From: a virus
Lineage: Duplodnaviria; Caudoviricetes
Virus record (IMG/VR): IMGVR_UViG_3300031111_000529
Location: 1 to 52,630 of that record
Strand: one strand, 5' to 3'
DNA: 52,630 nucleotides
Within the stretch, counting starts at the first letter, position 1. Every line of letters starts with the position of its first letter. Below, piece by piece: positions 68-51,052 of this stretch. The position numbers and the translations under genes were made by a program. The notes beneath the pieces are model-generated. The model searched no databases and was not told where the DNA came from. It saw only the letters and a list, made by a program, of their open reading frames with translations.

Positions 68-1426
68 TCAGATTGCCGGCAACGCCGCGACCGCCCCGGC
101 CGTGTCGGCGAGGTCGAGGTGGGTGTAGGTGTTCATCGTCAGGCGGATGTCGCTGTGTCGCATGAGCTTCTGAGCCACGCTGGGTGAGACACCGTTGCGG
201 GCCAGCAGCGTGGCGAAGGTGTGCCGCAGGCAATGAACGTCCACGGTTCGGCCCTGAGCGTCACGCTTGGGTATCCCTGCGGCTTTCAGGTCAAGATTGA
301 ACCCTCGTAGGAAGTTCCGCCCTGCGTTGAACAGCGGCATGTCCTGGATGGCTTGGCCGCCACTGGCCAGCCGGTCAACGTGCCTTCGCAGGTCGTCGGC
401 GAGGTCGCCTCGCAGAGGCAACGTCGCAGCCCGGCCACTCTTGGCGTGCTTGCCTTCGATGCAAACGTACGGGTTGGCCTCGTCAAGGCACAGCGCACCG
501 ACGGTAAGCGAAGCCACCTCCCCACGGCGAAGACCGGTGAGGATCATGAACTTGTAGGTCAGCGCCCGCTCCTGCCCGAGGCGTTCCAGACGCCTCCGCT
601 CCTTCTCGCTTACCTTGGCCAGCGGCTTGCCCTTGTTCTTGCCGCGACGAATGGTGAGGGCATCCTGTAGCGGCCGCTCCTGCGCCGCCTTGAGCAGCTT
701 GGCGATCTCGTCCTCCGTCAGCGGGCGACGTTTCCTCGCCGGCTCGGCTTCCTCAGCTTTGGGTAGCCCAGCCAGCGGATTGGCCGTCAACCGTCCCTCT
801 GCCACGCACCAGTTACAGAATGCCACGGTTGCCGCCCGGTGCATGTTGATGGTTCGGGCCGACAATGGCTGGGAATCAGGATCGCTCGGCTCGCGAGGCG
901 TCTGTGCCAGCTTCACCATCCATCGCTGGAGCGTCTGGCGGCCGATGTCCTTCAGCGTTCGGAAGGCACACTCACGAACGACCCGCTCCAGTTCCGTCCG
1001 CACGTGGCGGACGTGCTTCGGCGAGACGCGCCTGCCACGGATCGTCTTGACGGCCAGTTGGGCCAGATAGTCTTTGGTGTGCTTGCCGATGGGCGTTTCG
1101 AGTTGGCTGGCGGCCGCCATCTCGCCCTGACTCATGACGCCCGCCTTGACCTTCTCCACGTCGGCCAGAATGTCCGCGAGTACCTTCTCCGCGGCTCGCT
1201 TGTCGCGGCAGCCGGTCGATTGTCGCCGCATCTTGCCAGAGGCGTCACGGTACCGGACGTACCAGCAGTCTGAGACAAACTGGACGCGCCCATCGTCGAG
1301 CAATTCCGCCGTCCGCAACTGGCCCTTGCCGTTGGTCCAGCGAGCCAGCTTCTTACCTCGCTGGGTGATGATATCCGCCTCGTCGGGCATGGGGATCGGA
1401 TAGCTCTTCTTGTAGATTGTTGCCAT
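68..1426 (-). CDS. int: Tyrosine recombinase / phage integrase
   Basis: Catalytic motifs TGLRRGE (R), HAKSG (K), HCLRH (HxxR) and LMRHSDIRLTMNTYTH (H...Y); N-terminal arm-binding-like WYVRYRD segment. Confidence 0.96.
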   Translation of the reverse strand: MATIYKKSYPIPMPDEADIITQRGKKLARWTNGKGQLRTAELLDDGRVQFVSDCWYVRYRDASGKMRRQSTGCRDKRAAEKVLADILADVEKVKAGVMSQGEMAAASQLETPIGKHTKDYLAQLAVKTIRGRRVSPKHVRHVRTELERVVRECAFRTLKDIGRQTLQRWMVKLAQTPREPSDPDSQPLSARTINMHRAATVAFCNWCVAEGRLTANPLAGLPKAEEAEPARKRRPLTEDEIAKLLKAAQERPLQDALTIRRGKNKGKPLAKVSEKERRRLERLGQERALTYKFMILTGLRRGEVASLTVGALCLDEANPYVCIEGKHAKSGRAATLPLRGDLADDLRRHVDRLASGGQAIQDMPLFNAGRNFLRGFNLDLKAAGIPKRDAQGRTVDVHCLRHTFATLLARNGVSPSVAQKLMRHSDIRLTMNTYTHLDLADTAGAVAALPAI

Positions 1427-2295: not shown

Positions 2296-5200
2296 ATGCC
2301 GAGCAGGACAAGCAAGAGCGGCAGTGAACTGTTCATTGTGGACAACAGTGATGCAGACTGGAAGGTCCAGCGTTACCTGCGCGATTGGTGCCAGATCTCG
2401 AAGCAGTTGGATGTCGCTACGGGCTATTTTGAGATCGGTTCTCTATTGTCGCTGGGGGATGCTTGGGAGAGGGTGGATCATGTTCGCATCCTGATGGGCG
2501 ACGAGGTATCTCTTCGCACGAAGCGTGCCTTCGAAGAAGGGCTGGCGCACGCCACCGGAACACTGGATGAGAGCATTGAGGCCGCCAAGGAAACCAATGA
2601 CTTTCTGGTCGGCGTGCCAGCCATCGTTGAAGGGATCCGTAGTGGCAAGATAGCCTGCCGCGTGTACCGTAAGGACAAGTTCCACGCTAAGGCCTACATC
2701 ACGCACGGCCGGCTGGACGTGGTCGGGGCCTCCGCCTTGGTTGGGTCATCAAACTTCACGCACCCCGGGCTGACGGAAAACCTTGAACTCAACGTTCAGA
2801 TCACCGGCAGTCCGGTGAGTGTCCTTCAGGAGTGGTACGAGGAGCACTGGAACAATGCGGAAGACGTGACGCCGGAGATCCTCAGGACTATCGAACGCCA
2901 CACGCGGGAGTATCCCCCCTTCGAGGTCTACGCGCGAAGTCTGCAGGAGTACTTCCGCAGCCACGAGCTGACGGCCGACGAATGGGAACGGCGTGACTCA
3001 AAGATGTACCCGGTCCTGGCCACGTACCAGCGACATGGGTACCACGGCTTGCTGAAGAGAGCCAGGAAGTACGGCGGCGCCTTCCTTTGCGACGGCGTGG
3101 GTTTGGGCAAGACCTACATCGGACTAATGGCCATCGAGCGCCTTGTCCTCCACGAGAAGAAACGCGTCGCGCTCTTCGTCCCGAAGGCCGCACGGGAAGC
3201 CGTCTGGGAAAGCAAGATCAAGAAACACCTGCCGGAGATTCTCGGCGGGTTCCTGAGCTTCCGCATCTACAACCATACGGACCTGCTCCGTACAAACAGG
3301 CAGATTCGCCTCGAACTGGAGCAGATGAAGGAACAGGCGGACGTGGTGATGATCGATGAGGCCCATCACTTCCGCAACACCGGCATTCGCGGTGAGGATG
3401 AAGGTGATCGCAGAAGCCGTTACTGGGAAATGTTCGACATCTGCGATGGCAAGCAGCTCTTCCTGCTTACCGCCACGCCCGTCAACAACCGCCTGACCGA
3501 CTTCCAGCACATGACCGAATTGTTCTCGCGCCGGAAGGCGGAGTACTTCGGCATTGCTCCCCTTGGCATCCACAGCCTGCCCGGCCATGTCCGCACGTTG
3601 GAGAAACAGATTGAGGCCGCTGCCAAAGGACGCGAAGAGGAACTGAGCGAAGGCACGGCAGCCCTTGAGGAAGACAACGCTGAAACAAACCTGGCGGAAG
3701 CCGAGCAGATCCTGCGCGATGACTCACTCTTCGAGGAACTCGTCGTCCAGCGCAGCCGGGCTTACGTCAAGCAGTCCCTCGCCGAAGAGGACGGCCAAGT
3801 GCTTTTCCCGCAGTCCTCACCCCCGAAGGTCGTCCCCTACTCCGTCAAGCAGACCTACGGCAAACTGCTGAAGATGGTGGAGGATGCCTTCCACCAAAAG
3901 AAGCCGCTGTTCTCGCTGGCAATGTACTACCCATGGGACTACTACACCGGCGAACGTGACTTAACCGAGCAAGACGCCGCCATGACCGTTGGCCGCCAGA
4001 AGCAAGTAGCCCGACTGATTCGCACATCCTTCCTCAAGCGATTTGAGAGTTCGGTCTTCGCTTTCAAGGCGTCGTGCGAAACATTGATGAAGAAGCTGAT
4101 CGCCTTCTACCAAGTTCATGCCGAGGATCGCCACGACAAGGATCGCCTGGACAAGTGGCTCGGCCGCAACAAGGACATTACAGGCTTCGACCCGCACAAG
4201 CAGCACACCCTCTTCCCCGACCAGAAGGATCTGGAACTTGAGGAAGAGGACGTTGTGGAGCCGGAGTATTTCGAGAAGGCGTACAAGGATCGGCTCAGCC
4301 CGGATGAGTTCAACATTCCCGGTCTCCTGGCTGATGCCCTAAATGACCTGAACACTATCGCCGATTTCCTCAAGGAACTGGCCCTATTCGAGCCAAAGCA
4401 GGACAAGAAACTCCAGGCGCTCATCCAGCTGCTTCGCGGGCATACGCCGGGGTTGAAAGACGTTGCTCTCCAGCGCCACAAGCTGCTGGTCTTCACCGAG
4501 TTCAAGGACACGGCCCGTTATCTCGCTGAGCAACTCATCGAGGCCGGGTTCGCCGACGTGGTCGAGATCGACTCCCGCACACACTCCAACGGCCGGCTGG
4601 CCGTGATCCGAGCATTTGCTCCTTACTACAACGACTCATCCAGCGCGGACCTGGCCGCCAAAGGCCTGGACGAGACGCGCATCCTGATCTCGACGGATGT
4701 CCTCTCAGAAGGCCTGAACCTCCAGGACGCCACGCGTCTGGTCAACTACGACCTGCACTGGAACCCCGTGCGGCTCATGCAGCGCATTGGCCGAATCGAC
4801 CGGCGGCTAGACCCCGCTGTCGAGGCCCAGATGATCGCTGACCGCCCGGAGATCGAGAAGTTCCGCGGCATGATCCAGTACTACAACTTCCTCCCGCCGG
4901 ACGAATTGAACGAGCTTCTCAGTCTCTACAAGACCGTCACCCACAAGACGCTTCGCATCTCCAAGACCTTCGGCATCGAGAACGGCAAGCTGCTCCGCCC
5001 GGACGATGATTACGATATCCTCCGCGACTTCGTACGCCAGTGCGAGGGAACCGAATCGCAGAGCGAGGGCCTCAGCCTGGAGTTCCAGAAGCTGCTCAAG
5101 GACAACCCCGACATCGAGGCCAGAATCAGCCAATTCCCCAACCGCGTCTTCGCCGGTAAGGAATCGCTCAGTCCCGACACCACAGGCGTCTTCTTCTGCT

Positions 5201-5490
5201 ACGCCCGCCCAGCCAAGGATATAGACAGCGACGACTGGACCATCGAAGCCGGAGACGTGAGGTGGTATCTCTACGACCTTGCCACGGAGAAGATCATCGA
5301 AGACCCATACGAGATCGTCCAGCACATCCGCTCCGGCCCGGACACTCCGCGCGTTTGCCGCATGGGACAAGACGATCTCATCGAGATCCGTAAGAAGATG
5401 GACAAGTACATCAAGAACAGCTACCTCAAAAAGGTCCAGGCTCCAATCGGCGTGAAGCCGGTCCTCCGCACCTGGATGGAGCTAGCCTAG
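2296..5490 (+). CDS. PLD-family nuclease fused to SNF2-type SF2 helicase (restriction subunit-like)
   Basis: FHAKAY...GSSNFT...NLELN (PLD HxK motif); DGVGLGKT (Walker A), IDEAHHFRN, TATP, SEGLNLQ, QRIGRIDR (helicase motifs). Confidence 0.9.
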   Translation: MPSRTSKSGSELFIVDNSDADWKVQRYLRDWCQISKQLDVATGYFEIGSLLSLGDAWERVDHVRILMGDEVSLRTKRAFEEGLAHATGTLDESIEAAKETNDFLVGVPAIVEGIRSGKIACRVYRKDKFHAKAYITHGRLDVVGASALVGSSNFTHPGLTENLELNVQITGSPVSVLQEWYEEHWNNAEDVTPEILRTIERHTREYPPFEVYARSLQEYFRSHELTADEWERRDSKMYPVLATYQRHGYHGLLKRARKYGGAFLCDGVGLGKTYIGLMAIERLVLHEKKRVALFVPKAAREAVWESKIKKHLPEILGGFLSFRIYNHTDLLRTNRQIRLELEQMKEQADVVMIDEAHHFRNTGIRGEDEGDRRSRYWEMFDICDGKQLFLLTATPVNNRLTDFQHMTELFSRRKAEYFGIAPLGIHSLPGHVRTLEKQIEAAAKGREEELSEGTAALEEDNAETNLAEAEQILRDDSLFEELVVQRSRAYVKQSLAEEDGQVLFPQSSPPKVVPYSVKQTYGKLLKMVEDAFHQKKPLFSLAMYYPWDYYTGERDLTEQDAAMTVGRQKQVARLIRTSFLKRFESSVFAFKASCETLMKKLIAFYQVHAEDRHDKDRLDKWLGRNKDITGFDPHKQHTLFPDQKDLELEEEDVVEPEYFEKAYKDRLSPDEFNIPGLLADALNDLNTIADFLKELALFEPKQDKKLQALIQLLRGHTPGLKDVALQRHKLLVFTEFKDTARYLAEQLIEAGFADVVEIDSRTHSNGRLAVIRAFAPYYNDSSSADLAAKGLDETRILISTDVLSEGLNLQDATRLVNYDLHWNPVRLMQRIGRIDRRLDPAVEAQMIADRPEIEKFRGMIQYYNFLPPDELNELLSLYKTVTHKTLRISKTFGIENGKLLRPDDDYDILRDFVRQCEGTESQSEGLSLEFQKLLKDNPDIEARISQFPNRVFAGKESLSPDTTGVFFCYARPAKDIDSDDWTIEAGDVRWYLYDLATEKIIEDPYEIVQHIRSGPDTPRVCRMGQDDLIEIRKKMDKYIKNSYLKKVQAPIGVKPVLRTWMELA

Positions 5491-5508
5491 GGACAAGGGG
5501 TGTGATCA

Positions 5509-8500
5509 ATGTCTGAAGAGATTCGAGAGCAGCTGCAGGCCATCAAGACGTTCCCTTCGCTGGTCAAGTACCTCCGAGATGAACTCGACTGGCCCATCGA
5601 AGCCGATGACTTCGATGACCTGACCTTTGACTACGAGCCCGAAGAACTGGGCATCGATGCCAAGACGGCCGCGAAGATCGAGTACGTCAAACAGCTCCGC
5701 CCCCTTGAGGACGGCCAGCCCTGGGGCATCTTCTTCGTCAAGTTCGAGCCCAAGCGGCTCCCCGTCGTCGCCATGCGCCGCATCCTCCGCGGCCTAGCTG
5801 TCAAGAAGCGTGCCTCCGCCAACCGGGCCGACAGGGCTGCCTGGGCCAGGACCGACCTGCTGTTTATCTCAGCCTACGGCGAGAACGAGCAACGTCACAT
5901 CAACTTCGCCCACTTCCACGAGAGTCCACAGAACGGCGACCTGCCCGTCCTGCGCGTTCTTGGCTGGGATGGCTCGGACACCGCCCTGCACATCGACCAC
6001 GTCCACGAGACGCTCACGAGCAGGCTGCGCTGGCCAGATGACGTTCTGGATGCCAATGCTTGGCGGGAGACCTGGGCCGGCGCCTTTACCCTTAAACACC
6101 GCGAGGTCATCACCACCAGCAAGCAGATGGCCATTCGTCTGGCCGACCTTGCCCGGCAGATCCGCAAGAAGATCAACTCCATCCTGGCCATCGAGAAACA
6201 AAGCGGTCCCATGCATAAACTCATGGCTGCCTTCAAGGAAGCCCTCATTCACGACCTGTCAGAAGATGACTTCGCCGATACTTTTGCTCAGACCATTAGC
6301 TATGGGCTTCTGATCGCAGGCATGTCTCGTACCGTCAACGGTGAAGGCACGGCTGTGATCGCGACCGATATTGTCGAGATGGTTCCCAGAACGAACCCCT
6401 TTCTCCGCGAAATGCTTGCGACATTCCTAACCGTCGGGGGGCGTAGAGGCAGGCTGGACTTCGATGAACTGGGCATCAGTGACGTCGTCGATGTTCTTCG
6501 CAGCCCGGATACGCACATGGAGGCCGTCAAACGCGACGTTGGCGACGCAAATGTACGAGAAGATCCTGCCCTCTATTTCTACGAGCTGTTCCTGAAAGAA
6601 TACGACGCTAAGAAGCGCATGCAGCGCGGCGTCTTCTACACCCCCCGGCCGGTCGTATCCTACATCGTCCGCTCCGTCCACGAGCTGCTCCAGACCGAGT
6701 TCGGCTTGGAAGACGGCCTTGCCGACACGACTACCTGGGGGGAGATGGTCGAGAGATGTCCCGACCTCAAGCTGCCGACCATCAAGGTCAAGAAGCCCGA
6801 CTTGCCTGACCTGGTGAATGAGCCCATTGATCCCTCCACCCCGTTTATCCAGATACTCGACCCGGCCACCGGCACCGGCACCTTCCTTGTCGAGGTCATC
6901 GACGTCGTCCACAAGACGATGAAGCAGAAGTGGCTCGATGGTGGCCACTTGCCTCTGCAGATTCCCGAACTGTGGAACGACTACGTGCCCGAGCACCTTC
7001 TGCCACGTCTGTACGGCTACGAACTCATGATGGCCCCATATGCCATCGCCCACATGAAGATCGGCCTGAAGCTCTTCGAGACCGGCTACCGCTTCGGAAC
7101 CGACGAGCGGGCCCGCATCTATCTCACCAACGCACTCGAGCCCGCGCAGGACTTCTCAGACACGTTCGAGCAGATGGCCCCCGCCCTAGCCCACGAAGCC
7201 CAGGCCGTCAACGACGTCAAGCGGCATCATCGCTTCACCGTAGTGATCGGGAATCCACCGTATTCCGCGCTATCCGCCAATCTGACCGAACAGGCGCGTC
7301 GACTCGTGACACGGTTTAAGTACATTGATGGCATCAAACTCCACGAACGCGGCGCGTTGCAGTTGGAGAAGAATCTTCAGGATGACTATGTCAAGTTCTT
7401 GGCCATTACCGAAGATCACTTGAGCGAAAGCGGGATTGGCGCTTGCGGCATCATCTGCAATCACGGTTTCATCGACAATCCCACTCTACGAGGTCTACGC
7501 TGGTCGCTGTTGGACCGTTTCAGCAACCAGTGGGTCCTGGATCTGCACGGCAATGTCAATCGCCGCGAAGTCGCGCCGGACGGCTCGCCCGATCAGAATA
7601 TCTTCGACATCAAGGACGCGGGGGTAGCAATCTTCCTCGCCACACGCGGCCAGCGCACATGTTCTGCGGACGCTGGACTGCGCCAAGCGGACCTCTGGGG
7701 GGGAGACCGTGTGACGCAGAAATACCCATTTCTGTCGACGGAGTCAGCCGCGACAACGCCGTGGGAATCGGTCTCGACCGGCCCCGAGCTGTACCTGTTC
7801 TGCAACATCGGTGGCCCCGACGCGGAAGAATACGCGGCTTGGCCTAAGGCTACGGAGGTCTTTCCGCTGCACAGTATCGGCATGATTACGGCGCGGGACG
7901 CGTACGTCATTGACTTCGAGCCGGGGCTGGTCTTAGAGCGGGCGAAGGCCTTCCGCGGCTCAACTTTGGATGACGAGGCGACGTGCCAGGCGCTGGGCAT
8001 TCCGTTAAAGAAAGGCTGGAACATTGCTCGGGCGCGCCAGCGGATTCAGCAAGTGACGAACCTGGCATCCTGCGTTCACCCGCTGCTGTACCGTCCGTTC
8101 GACATCCGGCCTGTGTTCTATCACGAATCGCTGATCTGGGGCATGGCCTGGCCAGTGATGCAGCACATGCTCGAAGGGCAGAACTTGGCCCTGATCACAT
8201 CGCGGATGACGAAGGGGGAGGACTTCCAGCATGTGTTGGTTAGCCGGGGTCTTTCCGAGGTGATTCTGCTTTCGTCGAAGACCTCCAACAACGCCTTCGT
8301 TTTCCCGTTGTACTTACGCAATCAGGAGGACATGCTTCATGCTGGCGGCACGACGAACATCAGCACGGAGTATACCCGAAGCATCTCGCAGGTCATCGGT
8401 GGCGCTGCACCTCCTCAAGCGATCTTTCAGTACATCTATGCCGTGCTGCACAGTCTAACGTACCGTAAGCGGTACGTGCATCTGCTGAAGCGCGACTTTC

Positions 8501-8991
8501 CGCGCATCCCGGTTCCAGCGACTGCGCATGTCTTCGACGGCCTGGCCGAATTGGGCGGGGAACTGGTTCCTCTGCACCTTCTGGAGTCCCCGCTGCTGGA
8601 CAAGCCGATTACCGCCTACACCGGCCCGGCAAATCCGGAGGTGGAGAAGGTCAGCTACAGCGACGAAACCGTCTGGCTGGACAGGGCCAAGACCCGTGGC
8701 TTTGAGGGCGTGCCGGAAGACGTCTGGAACTTCCACATCGGCGGGTACCAAGTCTGCCACAAGTGGCTCAAGGATCGCCAGGCCAAGGGCGGCAGGAACC
8801 CACGCCCCGGCCGCGTACTCAAGAAAGACGACGTCGAGCACTACCGCAAGATCGTCACGGCCCTCCACCACACCATCCGCCTCATGGGCGAGATCGACGA
8901 AGTCATCGAGCAGCACGGCGGCTGGCCCGACGCCTTCATCACTGACCCAAAGGTCTTGGAAGGCCTGAAATCAAGAGATGGGAAGCCATAG
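5509..8991 (+). CDS. N6-adenine DNA methyltransferase with C-terminal target-recognition domain (Type ISP/IIG-like)
   Basis: GVFYTP, ILDPATGTGTF (SAM binding), VIGNPPY (catalytic); C-terminal YRPFD, YIYAVLHS.YR.RY...DFPRIP and IGGYQVCHKWLKDR as in Type ISP specificity domains. Confidence 0.92.
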   Translation: MSEEIREQLQAIKTFPSLVKYLRDELDWPIEADDFDDLTFDYEPEELGIDAKTAAKIEYVKQLRPLEDGQPWGIFFVKFEPKRLPVVAMRRILRGLAVKKRASANRADRAAWARTDLLFISAYGENEQRHINFAHFHESPQNGDLPVLRVLGWDGSDTALHIDHVHETLTSRLRWPDDVLDANAWRETWAGAFTLKHREVITTSKQMAIRLADLARQIRKKINSILAIEKQSGPMHKLMAAFKEALIHDLSEDDFADTFAQTISYGLLIAGMSRTVNGEGTAVIATDIVEMVPRTNPFLREMLATFLTVGGRRGRLDFDELGISDVVDVLRSPDTHMEAVKRDVGDANVREDPALYFYELFLKEYDAKKRMQRGVFYTPRPVVSYIVRSVHELLQTEFGLEDGLADTTTWGEMVERCPDLKLPTIKVKKPDLPDLVNEPIDPSTPFIQILDPATGTGTFLVEVIDVVHKTMKQKWLDGGHLPLQIPELWNDYVPEHLLPRLYGYELMMAPYAIAHMKIGLKLFETGYRFGTDERARIYLTNALEPAQDFSDTFEQMAPALAHEAQAVNDVKRHHRFTVVIGNPPYSALSANLTEQARRLVTRFKYIDGIKLHERGALQLEKNLQDDYVKFLAITEDHLSESGIGACGIICNHGFIDNPTLRGLRWSLLDRFSNQWVLDLHGNVNRREVAPDGSPDQNIFDIKDAGVAIFLATRGQRTCSADAGLRQADLWGGDRVTQKYPFLSTESAATTPWESVSTGPELYLFCNIGGPDAEEYAAWPKATEVFPLHSIGMITARDAYVIDFEPGLVLERAKAFRGSTLDDEATCQALGIPLKKGWNIARARQRIQQVTNLASCVHPLLYRPFDIRPVFYHESLIWGMAWPVMQHMLEGQNLALITSRMTKGEDFQHVLVSRGLSEVILLSSKTSNNAFVFPLYLRNQEDMLHAGGTTNISTEYTRSISQVIGGAAPPQAIFQYIYAVLHSLTYRKRYVHLLKRDFPRIPVPATAHVFDGLAELGGELVPLHLLESPLLDKPITAYTGPANPEVEKVSYSDETVWLDRAKTRGFEGVPEDVWNFHIGGYQVCHKWLKDRQAKGGRNPRPGRVLKKDDVEHYRKIVTALHHTIRLMGEIDEVIEQHGGWPDAFITDPKVLEGLKSRDGKP

Positions 8992-9027
8992 TCGCCTCTC
9001 ATCTGGAGCGACAGCCCACTAAGCCGC

Positions 9028-9387
9028 ATGGGAACACTTACCATAGACAATCAGGACGGCCTTCACTTGCGGACCAATGCTCCTGCTGAGCAGGCCCAAC
9101 GTTATGCGGCTGCGTTCCGCCAGGTATGGCAGACGATTCACCCAAATGACCGGCAGAGAGCCAAGGGCCACTGGCTCGGCAATAGCCCCACCGGACATCG
9201 AGCTGAGCGACCTGTGGCAACACAACGAGCGGGCTGGGCAACGGTATATTCTGGACCTGCTATTGAGCGTAACCAATCTGAGCGTTCAGACAATGGATAC
9301 CGTGGACAGCCTGCCGACGCTGGACCTCTCCGCGGGGGCGGAGAGATGATCCGAAACAGAAGCATGGAGTTGCCAGCGAAGGAGTAA
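9028..9387 (+). pseudogene. Hypothetical ORF, possibly frameshifted remnant
   Basis: Protein-like N-terminus (MGTLTIDNQDGLHLRTNAP...FRQVWQTIHP) seems to continue in the overlapping frame (PPDIELSDLWQH) after a C-run near 9186; no recognisable family. Confidence 0.3.
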
Positions 9388-9392
9388 TCCTC

Positions 9393-10169
9393 ATGGGCCA
9401 CAACCGACTTCATGTAATCGCGCAGACGCGGCTTTGGCGCGAGGTGGTCGGCACGCTGGAAGACCACGACAGTGGGATGGCCGATGTTGCGTCGGCGACG
9501 GCGACGGCCGCGCAGACCGGCCTTCAACGGGCCAAGGGGGACGAAGGGCTTTCGTACGCATTCTGGCTTCTCTGCCAGATTCCGCTGGCCGCCAAGAAGG
9601 CCGACTTCGGCAAGGGCCTTCGCGGGCTGGGGCTGGACGTCCCCGACGCGCCTTCGACGTTCGACGTAGCCGCCGGTTTCACTGAGGCCGTCGAGTCCCA
9701 CCTTCGCCGGACCCGAGGCCGGACAGACATAGGTGAAATCGCCCAACTGGCCGCTGCCGAGTGCCTGACCGCCACGGCGACGCAGGCGCTGAAGGGCCTG
9801 TTCAGTTCAGAGGCCGAGAACGTCCAGAACACCTTCGGGGGGCAGGCGACGCAGAAGAACTTCGGCTTCTTCGCCCAGGACTTCTTCGCACGGTTTGCGA
9901 GCCGCTTCCTGGCATACCACCTCAGCCGGGAGCTTTCGAACCATGTCGGCGAAGGTCGTCGGTTTGCGAACATATCCGAGCATGAGCAGTTCAAGGAAGC
10001 GATGGAGCTTCATTGCCGCCAGACCGCCCGCATTGTGCGGGAGTATGCCGGGACCTGGCATTCGAAGACAAGCTATGAATCGGGAATCACGCCCCGGAAG
10101 GCCAAGCGATTCGTCGCCCATGCGATGACCAAGCTGAGCGATGAGCTTTCGCGAAGGGAGGGGCGATGA
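9393..10169 (+). CDS. Alpha-helical partner of the QueC-like enzyme (QatB-analogous; N-terminus Met-Gly-His)
   Basis: AAGGAG RBS; 258 aa, Ala-rich and helical; stop overlaps the QueC start (ATGA). QatB analogy is inferred from position, size and Gly2. Confidence 0.75.
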   Translation: MGHNRLHVIAQTRLWREVVGTLEDHDSGMADVASATATAAQTGLQRAKGDEGLSYAFWLLCQIPLAAKKADFGKGLRGLGLDVPDAPSTFDVAAGFTEAVESHLRRTRGRTDIGEIAQLAAAECLTATATQALKGLFSSEAENVQNTFGGQATQKNFGFFAQDFFARFASRFLAYHLSRELSNHVGEGRRFANISEHEQFKEAMELHCRQTARIVREYAGTWHSKTSYESGITPRKAKRFVAHAMTKLSDELSRREGR

Positions 10170-11866
10170 AGCACGAACGCCTAATCCTTTGCGGCGGCGC
10201 ATCGGCCCCCCGAGGCGTGCGGGCTGAACGGCTTCACCTGGACCTTTGGGGCCGCGACCCGAACGTATTCCTGAAGATTCGCAATATCACCGACGCCGTG
10301 GCCAAGAACCCCCCGCCAGTCCTGCTGGACTTGCTGGACGTGGCCGCCTACCTGTACGCCGGCGATCAATGCGTTCCGCGCGGGGGGACGGCCAGCTTCG
10401 ACTACGGCGACCGATGGGACCGCCGATTGCGCTACGTGATTCCGCTTCGAAGGCCCAAGGTATGGCAACGCGCCAGAGTCAAAGAAGCCCTGGCCGACGT
10501 TCTCGGCTGGATGACCGATGACCAGTTTGAGTTCCGTTTTCCGCAACTGAAGAATCCCCCGAAGCTGCCGAGTTACCTTGAGTTCGACAAGGACACGGCG
10601 AACCCCACGGGCATTGAGGAAGTCTGCATGTTCTCGGGCGGGTTGGATTCGCTGGCGGGCGCGGTCAAAGAAGCCGTGGTGGACGGCCGGAAAGTTGCGC
10701 TGGTTGGCCACTGCCCCGCCCCGCAACTGCACAAGCGGCAGGACCAGCTTCTTGAGGCCCTGGCCGCAAAGTGCAAGCCGGCCAAGCGGCCGTTCTTTGT
10801 CCAAGTATGGGCAAACAAGGCTTCCAGCTTGACCAAAGACACGTCGCAGCGCATCAGGTCCTTCCTGTTCGCTTCGCTGGGCGCGGTGATTGCCGGCATG
10901 ATGAAGCTGAATCGCGTTCGGTTCTACGAGAACGGCCCGGTTTCGCTGAACCTTCCCCTTTGCGAACAGCTTGTTGGGGCGCGGGTCACGCGGACGACGC
11001 ACCCGAAGACGCTAGCCGGGATGAGTAAGCTGCTCAGCCTGTTGCTAGGAACCGACTTCGCGGTGGACAACCCGTTCCTGTGGAAGACGCGAACCGACAC
11101 TGTGCTTGACCTGAAAGCCGCGAAGGCCGAAGACCTGCTCCCCTACACCGTCAGTTGCAGCCATACGCGGGGAATGACAACGGGCTACCCGCATTGCGGT
11201 TGCTGTTCGCAGTGCATAGACAGGCGCTTCGCCGTCTTGGCCGCCGATTGTGGACAACACGACCCCGCCGATTCCTACCAACTGGACGTGCTCACCGACG
11301 GGCGAGACAAGACCGAAGACCGCACCATGCTGGAACGCTACTTGGGCTTCGCGGCCAAGGTCGAAGCCGTTAAGGACGAGAACACCTTCTTCACTGAGTT
11401 CCCCGAAGCCTATCGCACAATCAACGCCATGGACGGGGACCGGCGGGAATCGGCCAAACAGGTCATCGCACTGTGCAAACGACACGGGGAGCAGGTCAAC
11501 GGCGTTGTCGACCGCGCCTTGGCCGATGCGGCTGCAAGTGGAGCATTGCGGCGCGGGGAACTGCCAGGCAATTGTGCGCTCCTGCTGGTGGGAAGCAGGC
11601 ACTCGACCCCCGCGCCTACGACCGAAGCCACTGGGCAGGATAGTGCATCGCCTGCCGAACAGGATACCGACCGCCCACGCTGCGCGCCAATGACACGAAC
11701 CGAGATAGCCCGCCGGCTGCTAAACCGAACAGACGCCCGCGTTCGTCAAGCTGAAGGCATGATGAAGCGCCTTGGCTTGCGGCAGGAAGACGGCAAGTTC
11801 TACACGATCCTGGTTGACCAACTGGATCCTGCGACGAGGACACGCCTTCTGAAGCCAGCTTCTTGA
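10166..11866 (+). CDS. QueC/QatC-like PP-loop ATP pyrophosphatase with C-terminal linker and HTH-like extension
   Basis: FSGGLDS PP-loop; RSFLF, ENG and TRTTHP motifs; Zn cluster SCSH...HCGCCSQCIDRR; QatC-like N-terminal extension (DLLDVAAYLYAGDQ); tail MTRTEIARRLLN... Confidence 0.88.
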   Translation: MKHERLILCGGASAPRGVRAERLHLDLWGRDPNVFLKIRNITDAVAKNPPPVLLDLLDVAAYLYAGDQCVPRGGTASFDYGDRWDRRLRYVIPLRRPKVWQRARVKEALADVLGWMTDDQFEFRFPQLKNPPKLPSYLEFDKDTANPTGIEEVCMFSGGLDSLAGAVKEAVVDGRKVALVGHCPAPQLHKRQDQLLEALAAKCKPAKRPFFVQVWANKASSLTKDTSQRIRSFLFASLGAVIAGMMKLNRVRFYENGPVSLNLPLCEQLVGARVTRTTHPKTLAGMSKLLSLLLGTDFAVDNPFLWKTRTDTVLDLKAAKAEDLLPYTVSCSHTRGMTTGYPHCGCCSQCIDRRFAVLAADCGQHDPADSYQLDVLTDGRDKTEDRTMLERYLGFAAKVEAVKDENTFFTEFPEAYRTINAMDGDRRESAKQVIALCKRHGEQVNGVVDRALADAAASGALRRGELPGNCALLLVGSRHSTPAPTTEATGQDSASPAEQDTDRPRCAPMTRTEIARRLLNRTDARVRQAEGMMKRLGLRQEDGKFYTILVDQLDPATRTRLLKPAS

Positions 11867-11875
11867 CGCAGTTCC

Positions 11876-11946
11876 TTACGGCCATTTCCGACCATTTCCG
11901 ACCATCCCCGCCAGTTACGACCATCCCCGCCACCACCCCATTCCGG
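11876..11946 (+). repeat. Phased ~10-bp direct repeats RCCATYYCCG (putative activator binding sites)
   Basis: GCCATTTCCG/ACCATTTCCG/ACCATCCCCG at 11881/11891/11901, ACCATCCCCG at 11920, CCATTCCG at 11938; followed by -10-like CATACT at 11962. Confidence 0.75.
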
Positions 11947-12038
11947 ACCTTGTCTGCGCACCATACTGTGGACCGTAGGACGCGGCAGGCAACGGACGCC
12001 TACGCGATTTCAACGGCGACGGACATGGAGCAGTGCTT

Positions 12039-12443
12039 ATGCAGCAAGTCAGGAGAAACGCCACCGACGGGCGTAACGTCGGCGGGGAATCGGCCCCCGC
12101 GCAACTGGCCGAAATGCCCAACGTGCAAGGGAAGGCCGACCTCATCCCTGCAGAGGCGCGGCTGGTAGAGATGATGCAGCGGATCAACTACGGCCGCATC
12201 CTGGGGCTATCGGTGCGCCACGGCGAGCCAGTGATGGACCCGCCGCCGCGCATCTTCCATGAGTACAAGTTTCCCGGTGATAACGGGGCGCGCCCCGAAG
12301 CCACCAAGGTCGACTTTGCCCTCAAGGCCCAGGTCCGCGACCTCTTCGCCCAACTGGAGGCGATGGGTAATGGAGTCGTTCGGTCCATCGAGATTCAGCG
12401 CGGTCTTCCGTTTCGGATGACCGTCGAGGAGGAGGCCGCCTAA
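12039..12443 (+). CDS. Small conserved hypothetical protein with two helix-beta-beta half repeats (DUF2292/YezD-like by resemblance)
   Basis: GGAG RBS before ATG 12039; halves LVEMMQRINYGRILGLSVRHGEP and LFAQLEAMGNGVVRSIEIQRGLP resemble each other. Confidence 0.65.
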   Translation: MQQVRRNATDGRNVGGESAPAQLAEMPNVQGKADLIPAEARLVEMMQRINYGRILGLSVRHGEPVMDPPPRIFHEYKFPGDNGARPEATKVDFALKAQVRDLFAQLEAMGNGVVRSIEIQRGLPFRMTVEEEAA

Positions 12444-12494
12444 GCACCGGGGTCCGGCTCCCCACATGACATGTGATCCAAACGAATTGAGTAC

Positions 12495-12629
12495 CTGACA
12501 ACTAACCGGCCACGAAGTGGAGGCGTTGTGGGTGCCGCAGAAGCGGCAGTCCTGCAACGCCTCCCGTTCTATAGGTCGCAGCTTCGGTTGGCACCCACGC
12601 GACGCCTTCCCGGCCAAAGGAAGGCACAA
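12495..12629 (+). promoter_or_regulatory. Structured RNA leader/attenuator of the sigma gene
   Basis: Long hairpin 12519-12564; RBS-sequestering hairpin GCCTTCC/GGAAGGC 12604-12625; alternative pairing of 12519-12536 with 12590-12610. Confidence 0.65.
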
Positions 12630-13226
12630 ATGGACGCCAACAAGAAGCAGCACGGAATCAATGACTATGCAGAGAATCTCATCCACCACAAGGCACGTCA
12701 GCTCGTCGGCACTGCCGGCTTCACCAGGGACGACGTCGAGGATCTGGAGCAGGAGATGAGGCTTGACCTGCTGCAACGCCTGCCGAACTTCGACCCGAGC
12801 AAGGCGACCTACAACACGTTCGTATCACGTCTCATCGAACGGAAAATCAGCAATCTCATCCGCCATCGAACCCAGGAGCTGCGCGACCACCGGTGTGAGG
12901 ACGGGTCGATACATGATCCGATCCCATCCAGCCATGGCGGCGATACTGAGGTCGAGCGCATCGAGACCGTCACTCAGGACGAGCAGGATTTCCGGTTGGG
13001 CAAACACACCCGCAGCGCTGAGGAGCGTCGCGACCTGAAGCTGGACATCTCGCTGGCCTTGGAAAAGCTTCCGGCAGACCTACGGGAACTGGCGGAAATC
13101 CTGCAGGCCATGTCGATCACCGAAGCGGCCTGCGAATTGGGCATCCCGCGCAGCACGCTCTATGAGCGGATCGCCAAGCTGCGCCGGGCATTAGAGGCCA
13201 TGGGTCTAAACGGCCAGTTTCGATGA
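12630..13226 (+). CDS. ECF-like sigma-70 family RNA polymerase sigma factor
   Basis: Region 2 DDVEDLEQE...FDPSKATYNTFVSRLIERKISNLIR; region 4 LEKLP...MSITEAACELGIPRSTLYERIAKLR; GGAAGG RBS before ATG 12630. Confidence 0.9.
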   Translation: MDANKKQHGINDYAENLIHHKARQLVGTAGFTRDDVEDLEQEMRLDLLQRLPNFDPSKATYNTFVSRLIERKISNLIRHRTQELRDHRCEDGSIHDPIPSSHGGDTEVERIETVTQDEQDFRLGKHTRSAEERRDLKLDISLALEKLPADLRELAEILQAMSITEAACELGIPRSTLYERIAKLRRALEAMGLNGQFR

Positions 13227-18362: not shown

Positions 18363-20736
18363 GACGGGCGCCAGAATACCGGGCGAATGCAGTGTGGGCA
18401 AGCAGGCCCACGTTTACTTAAGCGCCGGCCTGTGCGTCCTGCCCGCCCGTCGCGACCAGAAGCGCCCGACAGTGGCGTGGAAGGCGTTCCAGAAGCGTCT
18501 GCCCACCTCCAGCGAGATCGACGCATGGTTCGCCAACGGCCACAGTGCGCTATGCCTGCTCACCGGCGAGGTGTCGGGTCGGCTGGAGTTGATCGATTTC
18601 GACAACGGCGGCGAACTCTTCCAACAGTGGTGTGATAAGGTCCGCGCGGTGGCGCCCGGTCTGCTGGAGCGGCTTGTTCTGTCCAGGACTCAGTCCGACG
18701 GACGCCACGCCGTCTACCGCCATGAGGCGGAGATCTGCGGCAACCTGAAGCTGGCCCAACGCCGCAGTGGTGACAAGATTACCACGCTCATCGAGACTCG
18801 TGGCGAGGGCGGGCTGTTCCTGTGCGCCCCGACGGATGGGTACGAGCTGATCCAGGGCGACCTGTGTGACCTGCCCGTCCTGACCGAACCCGAGCGCGAC
18901 GTTCTCCTGCAGGCGGCCTGGGATCTGAACGAATACATGCCGCCGGTGGTCGATGGTCCGAAGGGATCGGCGAATCTTGGCCACAGGGGGCCACTGTCGG
19001 CCCACAGTTCGAATAACTCGCCCTTATCGGCCCACCCGGCCAACAATCCACCGATCTCCGCCCACGACGCCGACAGTGCGCCCATGTCGGCGGATAATTC
19101 GCACAGGCCCGGCGATGATTTCAATGATCGCGGAGATGTGGGGTCCATGCTCGAACAATACGGATGGGTTCGCACCAAGGGCGGAGAGAACGAATACTGG
19201 CGACGACCGGGCAAGGAATCGGGCACATCGGCCACCCTCAAGGACCGGGTCTTCTACGTCTTCTCGTCCAATGCCTCGCCGTTCGAGCCCAACCAGGCCT
19301 ATTCTCCGTTTGCGGTCTGCGCATTGCTTGATCATGGCGGAGATTACGAACAGGCAGCCAGTTCTCTGCGACAGCTGGGATACGGAGGCGATGGTCCGCC
19401 AGATGTTCCCACAGGTGTGGACATCTCGGCCATCGTTCAGGCATGTGGCCCACGGCCGCCCGATGATTCGGAAGGTCCGCCACCTGCGTCGAACATCGCC
19501 GACCCCGGGCCGATGTCCGCCGACATGCTGCGGGTGCCCGGCTTTGTCGGCGAGGTAATAGACCACTGCCTGGACACCGCGCCATATCCCAGCCCTGTAA
19601 TGGCCTTCTGCGGCGCGCTATCGCTGCTGGCTTTCCTGGCCGGGCGCAAGGTGCGTGACAACGGCGATAACCGCACGAACATCTACCTGCTGGGCCTGGC
19701 GCACTCCGCTGCCGGCAAGGACTGGCCACGCAAGGTCAACACCCGCATCGTCCATGAGGTGGGTCTGGCCAACTGCCTCGGCGAACGGTTCGCATCAGGC
19801 GAAGGCATCCAGGACGCGCTATTTCAGACCCCGAGCATGCTCTTCCAGACCGACGAGATCGACAGCATGCTCCAGTCGATCAACAAGGCCAAGGACGCCC
19901 GGCATGAAGCGATCATGAGTACGCTGCTGACGATGTACTCGTCGGCCAACAGCGTCTTCCCCATGCGGCGCAAGGCGGGCAAGGAATCGCCTGGCGTCAT
20001 CGATCAGCCCAGCCTGGTCATCTTCGGCACGGCCATTCCGAACCACTACTACAAGGCCCTGAGCGAGCGGATGCTCACCAACGGCTTCTTCGCCCGCATG
20101 ATCATCCTCGAGGCCGGGCCGCGCGGCATGGGCCAAGAGCCGAGTATCCGCGACCTACCACCACGCGTGTTGGCGACGGCCAAATGGTGGGCCGACTACC
20201 AGACTGGCACGGGCAACCTCCAAGACTGGCATCCGGTGCCAGCGATGATTGAGCATACGGCCGAAGCCAAGCGGCTGCTCGTCGAGACCCGCGAGCAAGC
20301 GGAGGCCGAGTATGCCAAGGCCGAGGCGGGTAGCGATCCGGTGGGTACAACCGTCTGGGGACGGGTCAGTGAGCAGACTCGTAAGTTGGCCCTGCTCTAT
20401 GCCATCAGTGAGAACCACGTCTCGCCGCGCATCGGCCTGGCGGCCGTGCAATGGGCATCGGCGTTCGTGATGCACCAGACACGCCGAATGCTGTTCATGG
20501 CGGCCTCTCACGTGGCGGACAGTCCCTTTCACGCCGAATGCCTGAAGGTGATCGAGAAGCTGCGTGAAGCGCCGGGGTGTGAGTTGTCGCACAGCGTGAT
20601 GCTGAAGCGGATGAAGATGAAGGCGAAGGAATTCCACGATCTGATCGAAACGCTGGTGCAGCGAGGCGAGGTGCAGGTGGTTACCACGCCGAAGCCCGGC
20701 TGGCATATGCGGTCGTACCGGCTGATCGGGGGGTGA
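18361..20736 (+). CDS. Bifunctional primase-polymerase (Prim-Pol) fused to DUF3987-type helicase/ATPase
   Basis: GLCVLP..KRP..WK..Q, ELIDFD, GRHAVY, ETRGEGG (Prim-Pol); WRRPGK; LAHSAAGKD, DEID and SERMLTNGFFAR (DUF3987-like); start uncertain (18361 or ~18393). Confidence 0.88.
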   Translation: MTGARIPGECSVGKQAHVYLSAGLCVLPARRDQKRPTVAWKAFQKRLPTSSEIDAWFANGHSALCLLTGEVSGRLELIDFDNGGELFQQWCDKVRAVAPGLLERLVLSRTQSDGRHAVYRHEAEICGNLKLAQRRSGDKITTLIETRGEGGLFLCAPTDGYELIQGDLCDLPVLTEPERDVLLQAAWDLNEYMPPVVDGPKGSANLGHRGPLSAHSSNNSPLSAHPANNPPISAHDADSAPMSADNSHRPGDDFNDRGDVGSMLEQYGWVRTKGGENEYWRRPGKESGTSATLKDRVFYVFSSNASPFEPNQAYSPFAVCALLDHGGDYEQAASSLRQLGYGGDGPPDVPTGVDISAIVQACGPRPPDDSEGPPPASNIADPGPMSADMLRVPGFVGEVIDHCLDTAPYPSPVMAFCGALSLLAFLAGRKVRDNGDNRTNIYLLGLAHSAAGKDWPRKVNTRIVHEVGLANCLGERFASGEGIQDALFQTPSMLFQTDEIDSMLQSINKAKDARHEAIMSTLLTMYSSANSVFPMRRKAGKESPGVIDQPSLVIFGTAIPNHYYKALSERMLTNGFFARMIILEAGPRGMGQEPSIRDLPPRVLATAKWWADYQTGTGNLQDWHPVPAMIEHTAEAKRLLVETREQAEAEYAKAEAGSDPVGTTVWGRVSEQTRKLALLYAISENHVSPRIGLAAVQWASAFVMHQTRRMLFMAASHVADSPFHAECLKVIEKLREAPGCELSHSVMLKRMKMKAKEFHDLIETLVQRGEVQVVTTPKPGWHMRSYRLIGG
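18988..19107 (+). repeat. Four degenerate 30-bp in-frame tandem repeats (P[LIM]SA[HD] decapeptide)
   Basis: GPLSAHSSNN/SPLSAHPANN/PPISAHDADS/APMSADNSHR. Confidence 0.7.
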
Positions 20737-21127: not shown

Positions 21128-22474
21128 ATGACGACAAAGACGTTCGACGTAGAGCTTCGCAAGATCGACGACATCCGCCCGTATGAGCGGAACCCACGCG
21201 TCAATGACCAAGCCGTGGACGCCGTGGCGGCCAGCCTGAAGGAGTTCGGCTTCCGCCAGCCGATCGTGGTGGACACCAATGGCGTGATCCTCGCCGGCCA
21301 CACAAGATGGAAGGCCGCGAGGAAGCTCGGGCTTGCCAAGGTGCCGGTCCACGTCGCCACGGATCTGACACCTGAGCAGATCAAGGCGTACAGGATCGCA
21401 GATAACCAGACCGCGACGCTGGCCGAGTGGGACTTCGACCTGCTGCCAATCGAGCTGAAGGACCTGCAGGGCGTGGACTACGATCTGAATCTGCTCGGCT
21501 TCGACGGGGACGAACTGGCCCATCTGCTCGACGGCGATCTGGCCGAGGGCCTGACCGACCCAGACCAGATTCCTGAGCCGCCCGACGAGGCCATCACCAA
21601 GCCGGGCGACCTGTGGATTCTGGGCGAGCACCGGCTGTTGTGTGGCGACAGCGGCAACGAGGTCGACCTCGACCGCCTGCTGGACGGGGCGACCATCGAT
21701 CTTCTGGCGTGCGATCCGCCGTATAACGTGAAGGTCGAACCGCGTAGCAGCACGGCCATCGCCGCCGGACTCAGTTCCCACCCCGACCTTTCGAAGCCTT
21801 CTGGAAAAATGCACCACCAGAGCTTTGACGTTGCACGCGGTGTGACCGACCCGAAAAAGGCCCGCAAGAAGATGCGTGCTAAGGACCGACCGCTGGAGAA
21901 CGACTTCCTCAGCGACGAGGCGTTCGACGAGATGCTCATGGCGTGGTTTGGCAATGCCTCGCGCGTGCTCAAGCCTGGTGGGTCGTTCTACATCTGGGGC
22001 GGGTATGCCAACCTCGGCAACTACCCCGCGCCGCTGAAGGCCGCCGGGCTGTACTTTTCACAGGGAATCGTCTGGGACAAGCAGCACCCGGTTCTAACGC
22101 GCAAGGACTTCATGGGCGCTTTCGAGATCTGTTTCTACGGATGGAAGGAGGGCGCGGGCCATAAGTTCTTCGGCCCCAACAACGCTACGGACTTGTGGCA
22201 CGTCAAGAAGGTCAACCCACAGTCGATGGTGCACTTGACGGAGAAGCCCGTCGAGTTGGCCGTGCGCTCGGTTCAGTATTCCAGCCGTCCCGGAGAGAAC
22301 GTCCTAGATCTGTTCGGCGGATCGGGCTCGACGCTCATCGGGTGCGAGCAGACGAACCGCAAGGCATTCCTGATGGAACTCGACGCGTTGTACTGCGATG
22401 TGATCGTGCAGCGATGGGAGGAGTTCACGGGCAGGAAGGCAGAGCGAGTGAAGCAAGAGCAGGCAGTTACCTGA
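21128..22474 (+). CDS. ParB/Srx N-terminal domain fused to N4/N6 DNA methyltransferase
   Basis: RNPR..D.AV..VAASLKEFGFRQPIVVD...AGHTR (ParB); DPPYNV, HLTEKP and LDLFGGSGST (beta-class MTase). Confidence 0.93.
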   Translation: MTTKTFDVELRKIDDIRPYERNPRVNDQAVDAVAASLKEFGFRQPIVVDTNGVILAGHTRWKAARKLGLAKVPVHVATDLTPEQIKAYRIADNQTATLAEWDFDLLPIELKDLQGVDYDLNLLGFDGDELAHLLDGDLAEGLTDPDQIPEPPDEAITKPGDLWILGEHRLLCGDSGNEVDLDRLLDGATIDLLACDPPYNVKVEPRSSTAIAAGLSSHPDLSKPSGKMHHQSFDVARGVTDPKKARKKMRAKDRPLENDFLSDEAFDEMLMAWFGNASRVLKPGGSFYIWGGYANLGNYPAPLKAAGLYFSQGIVWDKQHPVLTRKDFMGAFEICFYGWKEGAGHKFFGPNNATDLWHVKKVNPQSMVHLTEKPVELAVRSVQYSSRPGENVLDLFGGSGSTLIGCEQTNRKAFLMELDALYCDVIVQRWEEFTGRKAERVKQEQAVT

Positions 22475-50836: not shown

Positions 50837-51052
50837 TTCGTAGCCCTTTCGTGCCAACAGCCGCCCTGACCAGTGGCGTAGCGACGCCCACCGGCAATCA
50901 GGAACAGTATCCCCTGGTAGAGGCGCACCCACTCCCCAGGCCACATCACGTCGGACAGGTAGAATGCTGTGGGAAACAGATAGGATCGGCCCTCAGTCTG
51001 GACTTCCCGGCTGAGGCCCCAACTCCCACGCTGTAAGACACATGTGAAAAGC

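Follow-up and report, generated by a model that had tools for sequence, protein, structure and literature searches.

Why should a QatC-family enzyme encoded by a phage end in a small basic domain, and why should a phased array of short DNA repeats begin within 14 nt of its stop codon? The question is raised by a gene in a 52,630-bp stretch of DNA (the window), which is the complete IMG/VR record of a provirus of the Caudoviricetes (IMGVR_UViG_3300031111_000529). A preliminary description of this locus had presented the gene product as a QueC-like enzyme that continues into a flexible linker and a helix-turn-helix (HTH) or winged-helix-like domain, that is, as a one-component DNA-binding regulator with the repeats just downstream as its target. 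The answer that we favor differs in several parts: the protein may be an enzyme-coupled DNA-binding regulator or tether positioned at the entry to the phage early genes, a reading to which we give an even chance. The features concerned are as follows.

10166-11866, plus strand: full open reading frame (ORF) of the QatC-like protein, 566 aa (core, residues 1-475; linker, 476-503; tail, 504-566).
10166-11590, plus strand: QatC-like core, residues 1-475, with an N-terminal extension, a PP-loop QueC-fold domain, a four-Cys site and C-terminal helices.
11591-11674, plus strand: acidic low-complexity linker, residues 476-503, ending in STPAPTTEATGQDSASPAEQDTDRP (isoelectric point [pI], 4.65), poorly conserved.
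11675-11866, plus strand: basic winged-helix-like domain of ~63 aa, residues 504-566 plus the stop codon (11864-11866), containing MTRTEIARRLLNRTDARVRQAEGMMKRLGLRQEDGKFYTILVD.
11880-11939, plus strand: array of six phased units (GGCCATTTCC, GACCATTTCC, GACCATCCCC, GCCAGTTAC, GACCATCCCC and GCCACCACCCC), beginning 14 nt past the stop codon; putative binding site.

The strings quoted in the preliminary description for the linker and the basic tail after the catalytic region were present letter for letter in the 566-aa ORF; the start given there for this region, 11590, lies one base before a codon boundary, and the in-frame position is 11591, which corresponds to residue 476. The linker, which varied and had in-frame indels among eight homologues, is presumably flexible or disordered. 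The tail was kept in all seven close homologues (59 to 85% overall identity), its absence from homologues having been regarded beforehand as counting against a functional module, and because of this conservation it is no chance extension of the ORF. Residues P508, M509, T510, R516, R517, L519, R525, R527, D551, L553 and D554 were invariant in the window and the seven homologues, and residues 500 to 566 had a pI of 10.7, with 15 Lys plus Arg and 9 Asp plus Glu residues. An AlphaFold2 model of residues 500 to 566, made with an 8-row alignment, had a mean predicted local distance difference test (pLDDT) score of 89.4 and consisted of a short strand, a helix (positions 12 to 20), a 6-residue turn, a second helix (27 to 36), a hairpin (40 to 43 and 46 to 48) and a final helix (56 to 63), with the invariant arginines R516, R517, R525 and R527 located around the turn and the N-terminal end of the second helix. 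The tail is thus predicted to be ordered rather than disordered and to have the shape of an HTH with a beta-hairpin wing, as first proposed, in a model that draws on eight sequences. We regard it as almost certainly a real folded domain and as quite likely to bind nucleic acid.

A profile of eight tails was compared with 1.84 billion representative proteins and matched 169 of these at an E value of ≤1e-3 and 64 at ≤1e-10. The domain ended at most 15 residues from the C terminus in 149 of the 150 family members listed, the exception (P0232) being a frameshifted form, and in P0143, P0169 and P0189 it stood alone, as a protein of 57 to 72 aa. None of the 149 new tail proteins (P0121-P0269) had a Pfam family at an E value of ≤0.001. 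The N-terminal parts of the 138 longer tail proteins (P0001 included) fell into 108 BLAST clusters, 96 of which were singletons, and P0122-P0124 combined tails ~75% identical to that of the window with entirely different N-terminal parts. The possibility that these parts are spurious extensions of GC-rich ORFs was rejected on codon-position GC content and composition, since they were high in GC at the first codon position, low at the second and high at the third and had a protein composition like that of the QatC core and unlike that of an out-of-frame read. Peptide-pattern scans of viral contigs for the tail returned only the window's own record, and no GenBank phage record matched either the tail or the whole protein. 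Among 401 genomes of the phylum to which the genome of locus L001 belongs, the tail profile matched two, L001's own genome and that of L015; the latter (E value, 1.7e-4) was dropped as a tail locus, being an Arg-rich spurious ORF with no array. These sequence comparisons define a small domain family, not described before, that is carried by more than 100 unrelated mobile-element proteins.

Each of the 10 tail-encoding loci for which DNA was available (the window, L001, L016, L017, L018, L019, L020, L021, L022 and L023) had 4 to 8 G(A/G)CCA units at 10-bp spacing after the tail coding region, and the arrays ended in GCCAC or ACCAC. The array came directly after the stop codon in the eight intact loci (the window, L001, L016-L020 and L023), and in L021 and L022 a frameshifted tail ORF read through it. 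In L018-L020 and L023 the tails were only 33 to 43% identical and the N-terminal parts were unrelated, and the array was still present. In L001 and L016 the enzyme, the tail and the array were alike (82 to 85% identity) and were placed before an excisionase-type gene, a primase gene and an integrase gene; because they stand there before different genes, the enzyme module and the array appear to move as a unit. Within the window, Tandem Repeats Finder reported repeats of period 10 and 19 at 11876-11932, and the array was the best-conserved intergenic stretch when the window was compared with three relatives. A three-unit pattern searched for in the entire 52.6 kb had one exact match and two one-mismatch matches at 18969-19003; 0.09 matches were expected when one mismatch was allowed, and no shuffled sequence gave three. 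Because the array is kept despite the divergence of the tails and the unrelated N-terminal parts in L018-L020 and L023, a link between tail and array is favored, and we put the chance that the array is the target of the tail slightly above even.

By its profile matches, the enzyme that carries the tail is a divergent QatC-like protein and not a canonical QueC, as it had been named in the preliminary description. The PADLOC QatC profile, which has no curated cutoff, matched residues 48 to 384 with an E value of 5e-52, and the NCBIfam QatC equivalog scored 203.4 bits over residues 50 to 404, below its cutoff of 280; the only sequence relatives in the PDB were the QatC chains 9vlk (E value, 4.8e-24) and 9zee (E value, 2.2e-20). 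Pfam QueC gave only a partial match (residues 285 to 356; 23.9 bits), short of the full-length profile, and the QueC equivalog TIGR00364 gave 16.4 bits against a cutoff of 150.3. The statement that canonical QueC has no such tail holds, and it extends to canonical QatC, the chains of 9vlk and 9zee being 465 to 466 aa long and without it. The QatC motifs described in the available parts of PMC13329287 and PMC13279940 are SGGxDS, two threonines with HP, and four cysteines. In the window enzyme, the PP-loop motif S157-G-G-L-D161-S162 was present and nearly invariant in 120 homologues (those listed out of 3,944 QatC-like proteins found at an E value of ≤0.001 among 8,000 scored), T275-R-T277-T-H279-P280 gave the QatC-type TxT...HP motif in place of the Tyr/Asp of QueC, and C331, C344, C347 and C350 made up the four-Cys zinc-site motif, in which the spacer ahead of the second Cys was shorter than in the published QatC pattern. 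R276, T278, H279, P280 and C344 were invariant across the 120 homologues. Because these motifs are present and are invariant or nearly so, the enzyme is probably active. As to the other components of Qat systems, no KAP or TatD match, indicative of qatA (KAP NTPase) or qatD (TatD nuclease), was found among the neighboring genes; according to the available parts of the Qat literature, qatA and qatD accompany only about one-third of the QatC-cluster genes.

The gene immediately upstream encodes a candidate partner.

9393-10169, plus strand: gene for the QatB-like partner, 258 aa, starting MGHNRL; its stop codon overlaps the QatC-like start by 4 nt.

The hallmark of QatB in the available Qat structural literature is an N-terminal Met-Gly. 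The upstream protein had no match in Pfam, to PADLOC QatB or in NCBIfam, and a gene of 258 to 261 aa starting MG(H/T)xR(L/I/V) was located directly upstream of the QatC-like gene in eight other loci; in a ninth (L007), the partner gene begins with I in place of M. Its AlphaFold2 model (pLDDT, 83.1) was all-helical, and the top two Foldseek matches in the PDB were QatB chains 9y01_A and 9y02_A (E values, 0.0098 and 0.019; probability, 1.00; TMt, 0.56 to 0.57), the remaining hits having template modeling (TM) scores of at most 0.21 and none reaching an E value of ≤0.001. A complex of core residues 1 to 480 with the QatB-like protein was predicted with a score of 0.88, compared with 0.00 for the best control; 58 of 80 solved complexes attained this mark, as did 2 of 110 mismatched pairs. 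Contact agreement between runs was at least 66%, and the pLDDT of the partner was at least 85. The predicted interface resembled that of solved QatBC and included residues 1 to 9 of the QatB-like protein and, in the enzyme, loop 258-277 and helices 383-430; the C-terminal helices of the core should hold the partner. Because a similar QatBC complex has already been solved, the score demonstrates likeness and does not prove binding. These models support the upstream protein as the QatB-like partner of the enzyme. With a conserved separate partner, the designation one-component probably does not apply, although the architecture, an input part and a putative DNA-binding output part in one polypeptide, would fit. 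In one family member, P0125 (248 aa), ~40 residues from the start of a QatB-like protein run into the last ~200 of a tailed QatC-like protein. It was rejected as a QatB-tail fusion and is apparently a deletion remnant.

Sister enzymes also end in additional modules. At least 40 residues followed the core in 118 of the 120 listed QatC-like members, and these extensions formed at least 18 BLAST clusters; the tail of the window type was found in 8 of the 120. Upon a Pfam scan of 20 representative QatC-like proteins (two sets of 10), 6 had DNA-binding families in the extension (Trans_reg_C in P0014, L003 and L010, Sigma70_r4_2 in P0015, MarR_2 in P0054 and HTH_17/MerR in P0074), and two of these 6 scored above the Pfam cutoff. 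Repeats of other kinds were found at the equivalent place. After the stop codon, the OmpR-type tails of L003 and L010 were followed by two direct 17- to 22-mers 23 nt apart, a second tail type (L002, L011 and L012) was followed by two palindromic 15- to 18-mers 21 to 22 nt apart, and L009 had ACCTGTCCT three times. The repeats of L009 and L011 come after a hairpin with a T-run, which puts them on the side of the next operon where its promoter would be. A direct repeat (at least 12 of 15 matches; spacing, 8 to 30) was present in 14 of 17 downstream segments of 130 nt, L005, L006 and L007 being the failures, versus 5.5% of 1,926 random segments taken from the same loci; the 17 loci include close relatives and are not independent.

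In the mechanism that these observations suggest, a divergent QatC-family PP-loop enzyme would pair with the QatB-like product of the upstream gene and receive its N-terminal glycine in the active site, and the flexible linker would join the enzyme to the small winged-helix-like domain. The latter would bind the 10-bp-phased G(A/G)CCA units 14 nt past the stop codon, which would set several copies of the tail side by side along one face of the double helix. Since the array is just upstream of the early operon (the 134-aa protein, the sigma factor and the replication genes described below), the QatB-QatC machine would be tethered to the entry to the early genes or would control it, as a repressor, an activator or a roadblock, and its DNA-bound state might depend on the enzyme reaction, in a logic like that of BirA. 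That the early genes are in fact controlled in this way we hold as a tentative proposal, with somewhat less than an even chance. We consider doubtful, although worth stating, a bolder version in which the QatB/QatC-like pair would be a signal-sensing master switch of temperate phages and integrative elements and not defense cargo; the module and its repeats would then be an exchangeable immunity determinant gating the early operon, DNA residence would be decided by what QatC does to the QatB N terminus, and the tail would serve as a general operator-binding plug for many unrelated sensor domains of mobile elements, all placed before the same G(A/G)CCA array.

Several results weigh against a DNA-binding tail that acts on the array. 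The fold comparison that had been proposed for the last ~65 aa gave no significant match: Foldseek returned 376 PDB matches to the tail model at an E value of ≤10 and none at ≤0.001 (best, 0.49; TM scores, 0.31 to 0.43), and in BFVD there was likewise none at ≤0.001 (best, 0.52). The HTH-and-wing assignment is therefore upheld by the predicted shape and not by known folds, nor by profiles, since neither an HTH profile nor any other match to the tail was found in Pfam, NCBIfam or PDB sequences; PHROGs and the ESM Atlas gave no usable match. Many of the weak PDB matches were winged-helix DNA binders (MuA 1tns, the MarR-type AbfR, the CRP-type Clr, BirA, RacA and IdeR), and the named weak matches in BFVD were mostly small phage proteins annotated as "helix-turn-helix," "Excise" or "MerR-like." No recognizable domain was found in the tails of 13 of the 20 scanned sisters, and P0064 ends in a predicted pPIWI-associated nuclease domain (PF18165; E value, 6e-10) and has no DNA-binding module. 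Canonical QatC did not bind DNA in an electrophoretic mobility shift assay reported in the available part of PMC13376578. A scan of 8900-12700 for the sigma-70 consensus gave no promoter. All tail loci may share ancestry, so that the co-occurrence of tail and array is in part inheritance, and the core motif is constant among tail subtypes, which leaves no covariation to support the link. A further objection concerns the array itself: loose 10-bp G(A/G)CCA arrays were found in 27 unrelated IMG/VR contigs (L024-L050) with no tail domain encoded in the DNA examined, and in L024 three inverted copies of GACCACGGC and then three of GACCATTTCC, a unit identical to one of the window, lie past an unidentified 162-aa ORF and upstream of the terminase small-subunit gene, beside packaging genes. 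Because such arrays occur in contigs without the tail, they can belong to other proteins.

These loose arrays are one argument for a different arrangement, which we judge unlikely, in which the tail is an adaptor for nucleic acid or protein and the array serves some other factor. The excisionase-type or 134-aa protein encoded downstream, the sigma factor of the phage, and a replication or packaging protein would be candidates for that factor, and tail and array would be neighbors only through a conserved mobile-element backbone. The lack of significant fold matches is also in line with this arrangement, as is a small HTH_17-like gene that follows the array in L001, L016, L018 and L021-L023. 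However, the gene past the array varies, being of the 134-aa type, HTH_17-like or, in L019 and L020, nothing obvious, whereas the tail is the constant neighbor in all 10 loci, and sisters with recognized DNA-binding domains have matching types of repeats at the equivalent spot. The tail might instead act on RNA: the array would form the 3'-terminal part of the qatC-like mRNA or the leader of the gene that follows, and the tail would bind this transcript to control read-through or translation. The genes are co-directional, no terminator-like site was found on the plus strand between the stop codon (11866) and the next start (12039), and winged-helix domains can bind RNA; yet the exact 10-bp phasing suits one face of duplex DNA, the repeats of L009 and L011 lie past a terminator-like hairpin, and the recognized sister tails are classic binders of duplex DNA, so that an RNA target is improbable. 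Least probable of all, in our estimate, is that the tail is in essence a small backbone gene of its own, fused in frame to any ORF that happens to precede it and perhaps even translated from the conserved internal Met509, which would leave the fusion to QatC without functional meaning. The stand-alone forms P0143, P0169 and P0189, an invariant Met where the domain begins, seen in tail alignments of 8 and of 21 sequences, the diversity of the N-terminal parts together with the want of a Pfam family in all 149 new proteins, and the near-identical tails of P0122-P0124 on unrelated proteins would all agree with it. On the other hand, none of the eight homologues had a stop codon between core and tail despite the in-frame indels in the linker, the residues ahead of the Met (R/E-x-C/W-x-P) were conserved and formed part of the modeled fold, the N-terminal parts had normal coding GC at all three codon positions and normal protein composition, and extensions of at least 40 residues past the core are the rule among the listed QatC-like members. 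An enzyme-coupled DNA-binding protein, with the array as its probable site, remains the reading that we prefer.

Three further features define this setting.

68-1426, minus strand: integrase gene, at the left end of the provirus.
12039-12443, plus strand: first gene 3' of the array, 134 aa, with an ATG start and GGAG 8 nt upstream; contains the motif LVEMMQRINYGRI.
12528-13226, plus strand: gene for a phage sigma-70-like factor (Pfam Sigma70_r2 and r4_2; PHROG RNA polymerase sigma factor; E value, 1.5e-18).

Besides the integrase, the provirus codes for a sigma factor, a primase, a terminase, a head protease/capsid protein and a tape measure protein. The wider neighbors of the QatC-like gene are a helicase gene and a type ISP/IIG enzyme gene, a 119-aa ORF, the 134-aa ORF and the sigma factor gene. 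The sigma factor gene is followed by AAA_24, DUF669, helicase and primase genes, which make up an early/replication operon, and the sigma factor and early operon were syntenic with the QatB/QatC-like pair in L003 and L006-L012. The order QatB-like, QatC-like, 134-aa-type gene and/or sigma-like factor, AAA_24, DUF669 and helicase was shared by the window, L004 and L006-L012. Across the syntenic loci, AAA_24 identity was as high as 68%, and the QatC-like enzymes were only 34 to 46% identical; given this order and this pattern of identity, the QatB/QatC-like pair looks like a standing part of the phage group and not a recent insertion. In L011 (2111-7953), the Qat-like pair and the sigma gene are oriented away from the AAA_24, DUF669 and helicase genes, and the pair therefore stays with the sigma gene and not with the replication genes.

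The product of the 134-aa gene matched no family in Pfam, PHROGs or NCBIfam scans. Homologues were found at the matching position in L008, L009, L010 and L012, and the motif LVE(L/M)MQRIxYGR was conserved in this protein, which follows the Qat-like pair in several phages. The first ~25 codons of the gene are common to an otherwise different excisionase-type gene in L001, and because these genes are unlike beyond that point, a recombination joint inside the 134-aa gene is suggested. Possible −35 and −10 hexamers can be picked out by eye between the array and this gene; they were not relied upon.

Between the integrase/excisionase region and the Qat-like pair lie two large plus-strand genes (2296-8991). 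The 1064-aa product of the first is a phospholipase D (HKD)-SNF2 helicase, and the 1160-aa product of the second is a type ISP/IIG-like methyltransferase-specificity protein (PADLOC REase_MTase_IIG; E value, 4e-171); both look like prophage defense cargo. In the replication module, an ORF at 21128-22474 joins a ParB-like N-terminal domain to a DNA methyltransferase (PHROG 498, E value of 3e-131; ParB-like PHROG 620, E value of 4e-52). A 191-aa HARE-HTH protein (E value, 5e-12) is encoded on the minus strand at 23222-23797, in a block of small minus-strand genes, and it was the sole recognizable DNA-binding protein when a classical repressor was sought in 10 small minus-strand ORFs, a search that was not exhaustive. 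Toward the right-hand end, where the G+C content of the provirus is lower (0.53 to 0.58), a very long minus-strand ORF of 2275 aa extends over 44117-50944.

The closest known system is QatABCD. The window enzyme shares with QatC (9vlk, 9zee and 9y01; available parts of PMC13279940, PMC13376578 and PMC13639016) the PP-loop core with SGGxDS, the TxT-HP motif, the four cysteines and the N- and C-terminal extensions, and, as in QatABCD, it is encoded next to a helical partner of ~260 aa with an N-terminal Met-Gly. It differs from QatC in being ~100 residues longer, by the linker and the basic tail, and in scoring 203 bits against a cutoff of 280, and the pair differs from QatABCD in being phage-borne and syntenic with an early operon, with no QatA or QatD gene nearby. 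Cap9 of the type IV cyclic oligonucleotide-based antiphage signaling system (CBASS), which carries out protein deazaguanylation, likewise belongs to the QueC family and acts on the N-terminal glycine of a partner protein; as described in the available part of its report (bioRxiv 10.1101/2025.04.06.647259), it is ~185 aa long, keeps the canonical QueC substrate residues, has a CD-NTase partner and lacks a DNA-binding module. No QatC fused to a DNA-binding domain was found in the available literature on QatC, QatB, QueC-like enzymes and deazaguanylation, including the main texts of PMC13376578, PMC13639016 and PMC13329287, and the Qat structural papers of 2026, in their available parts, leave the QatB-QatC reaction and its downstream step unresolved. 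What is new here is a QatBC variant with a small, undescribed tail domain family. A large phage-borne QatBC-like branch with exchangeable, putatively DNA-binding tails beside their own repeats suggests that one output of this chemistry is exerted on DNA or transcription.

The winged HTH domain of MuA has the order strand, helix, turn, helix, hairpin, helix, like the tail, and winged HTH domains of the MuA/Mu-repressor, MerR and excisionase kind (1tns; RacA, 5i44) were among its best weak Foldseek hits. The likeness ends there, with TM scores of only 0.40 to 0.43, E values of at least 1, no profile match and, in the window, a C-terminal position after a long linker. In BirA, an adenylating, protein-modifying enzyme is combined with a winged-helix domain and acts as a repressor of the bio operon once no protein substrate is left; BirA, NadR and PutA are bifunctional enzyme-repressors. 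The window protein would resemble BirA in combining an ATP-dependent protein-modifying enzyme with a small winged-helix module beside a presumed operator, and a BirA chain (9j8f_A) was among the weak fold hits of the tail. The enzyme folds are unrelated, the DNA-binding domain of BirA is N-terminal, and regulation at the locus described here is putative. Stl-type master repressors of phage satellites consist of a conserved DNA-binding domain and a highly variable sensor domain. They differ from the tail proteins in domain order and gene orientation, and there is no homology between the two; the likeness is that the tail family, too, is one conserved small domain with very diverse partners and that the tail genes of L001, L016 and L018 are located upstream of excisionase/AlpA-like, primase and integrase genes. 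Being carried by so many unrelated mobile-element proteins, and followed by the phased array at every tail locus with DNA, the tail domain is a candidate general DNA tether or the candidate DNA-binding half of master regulators of such elements.

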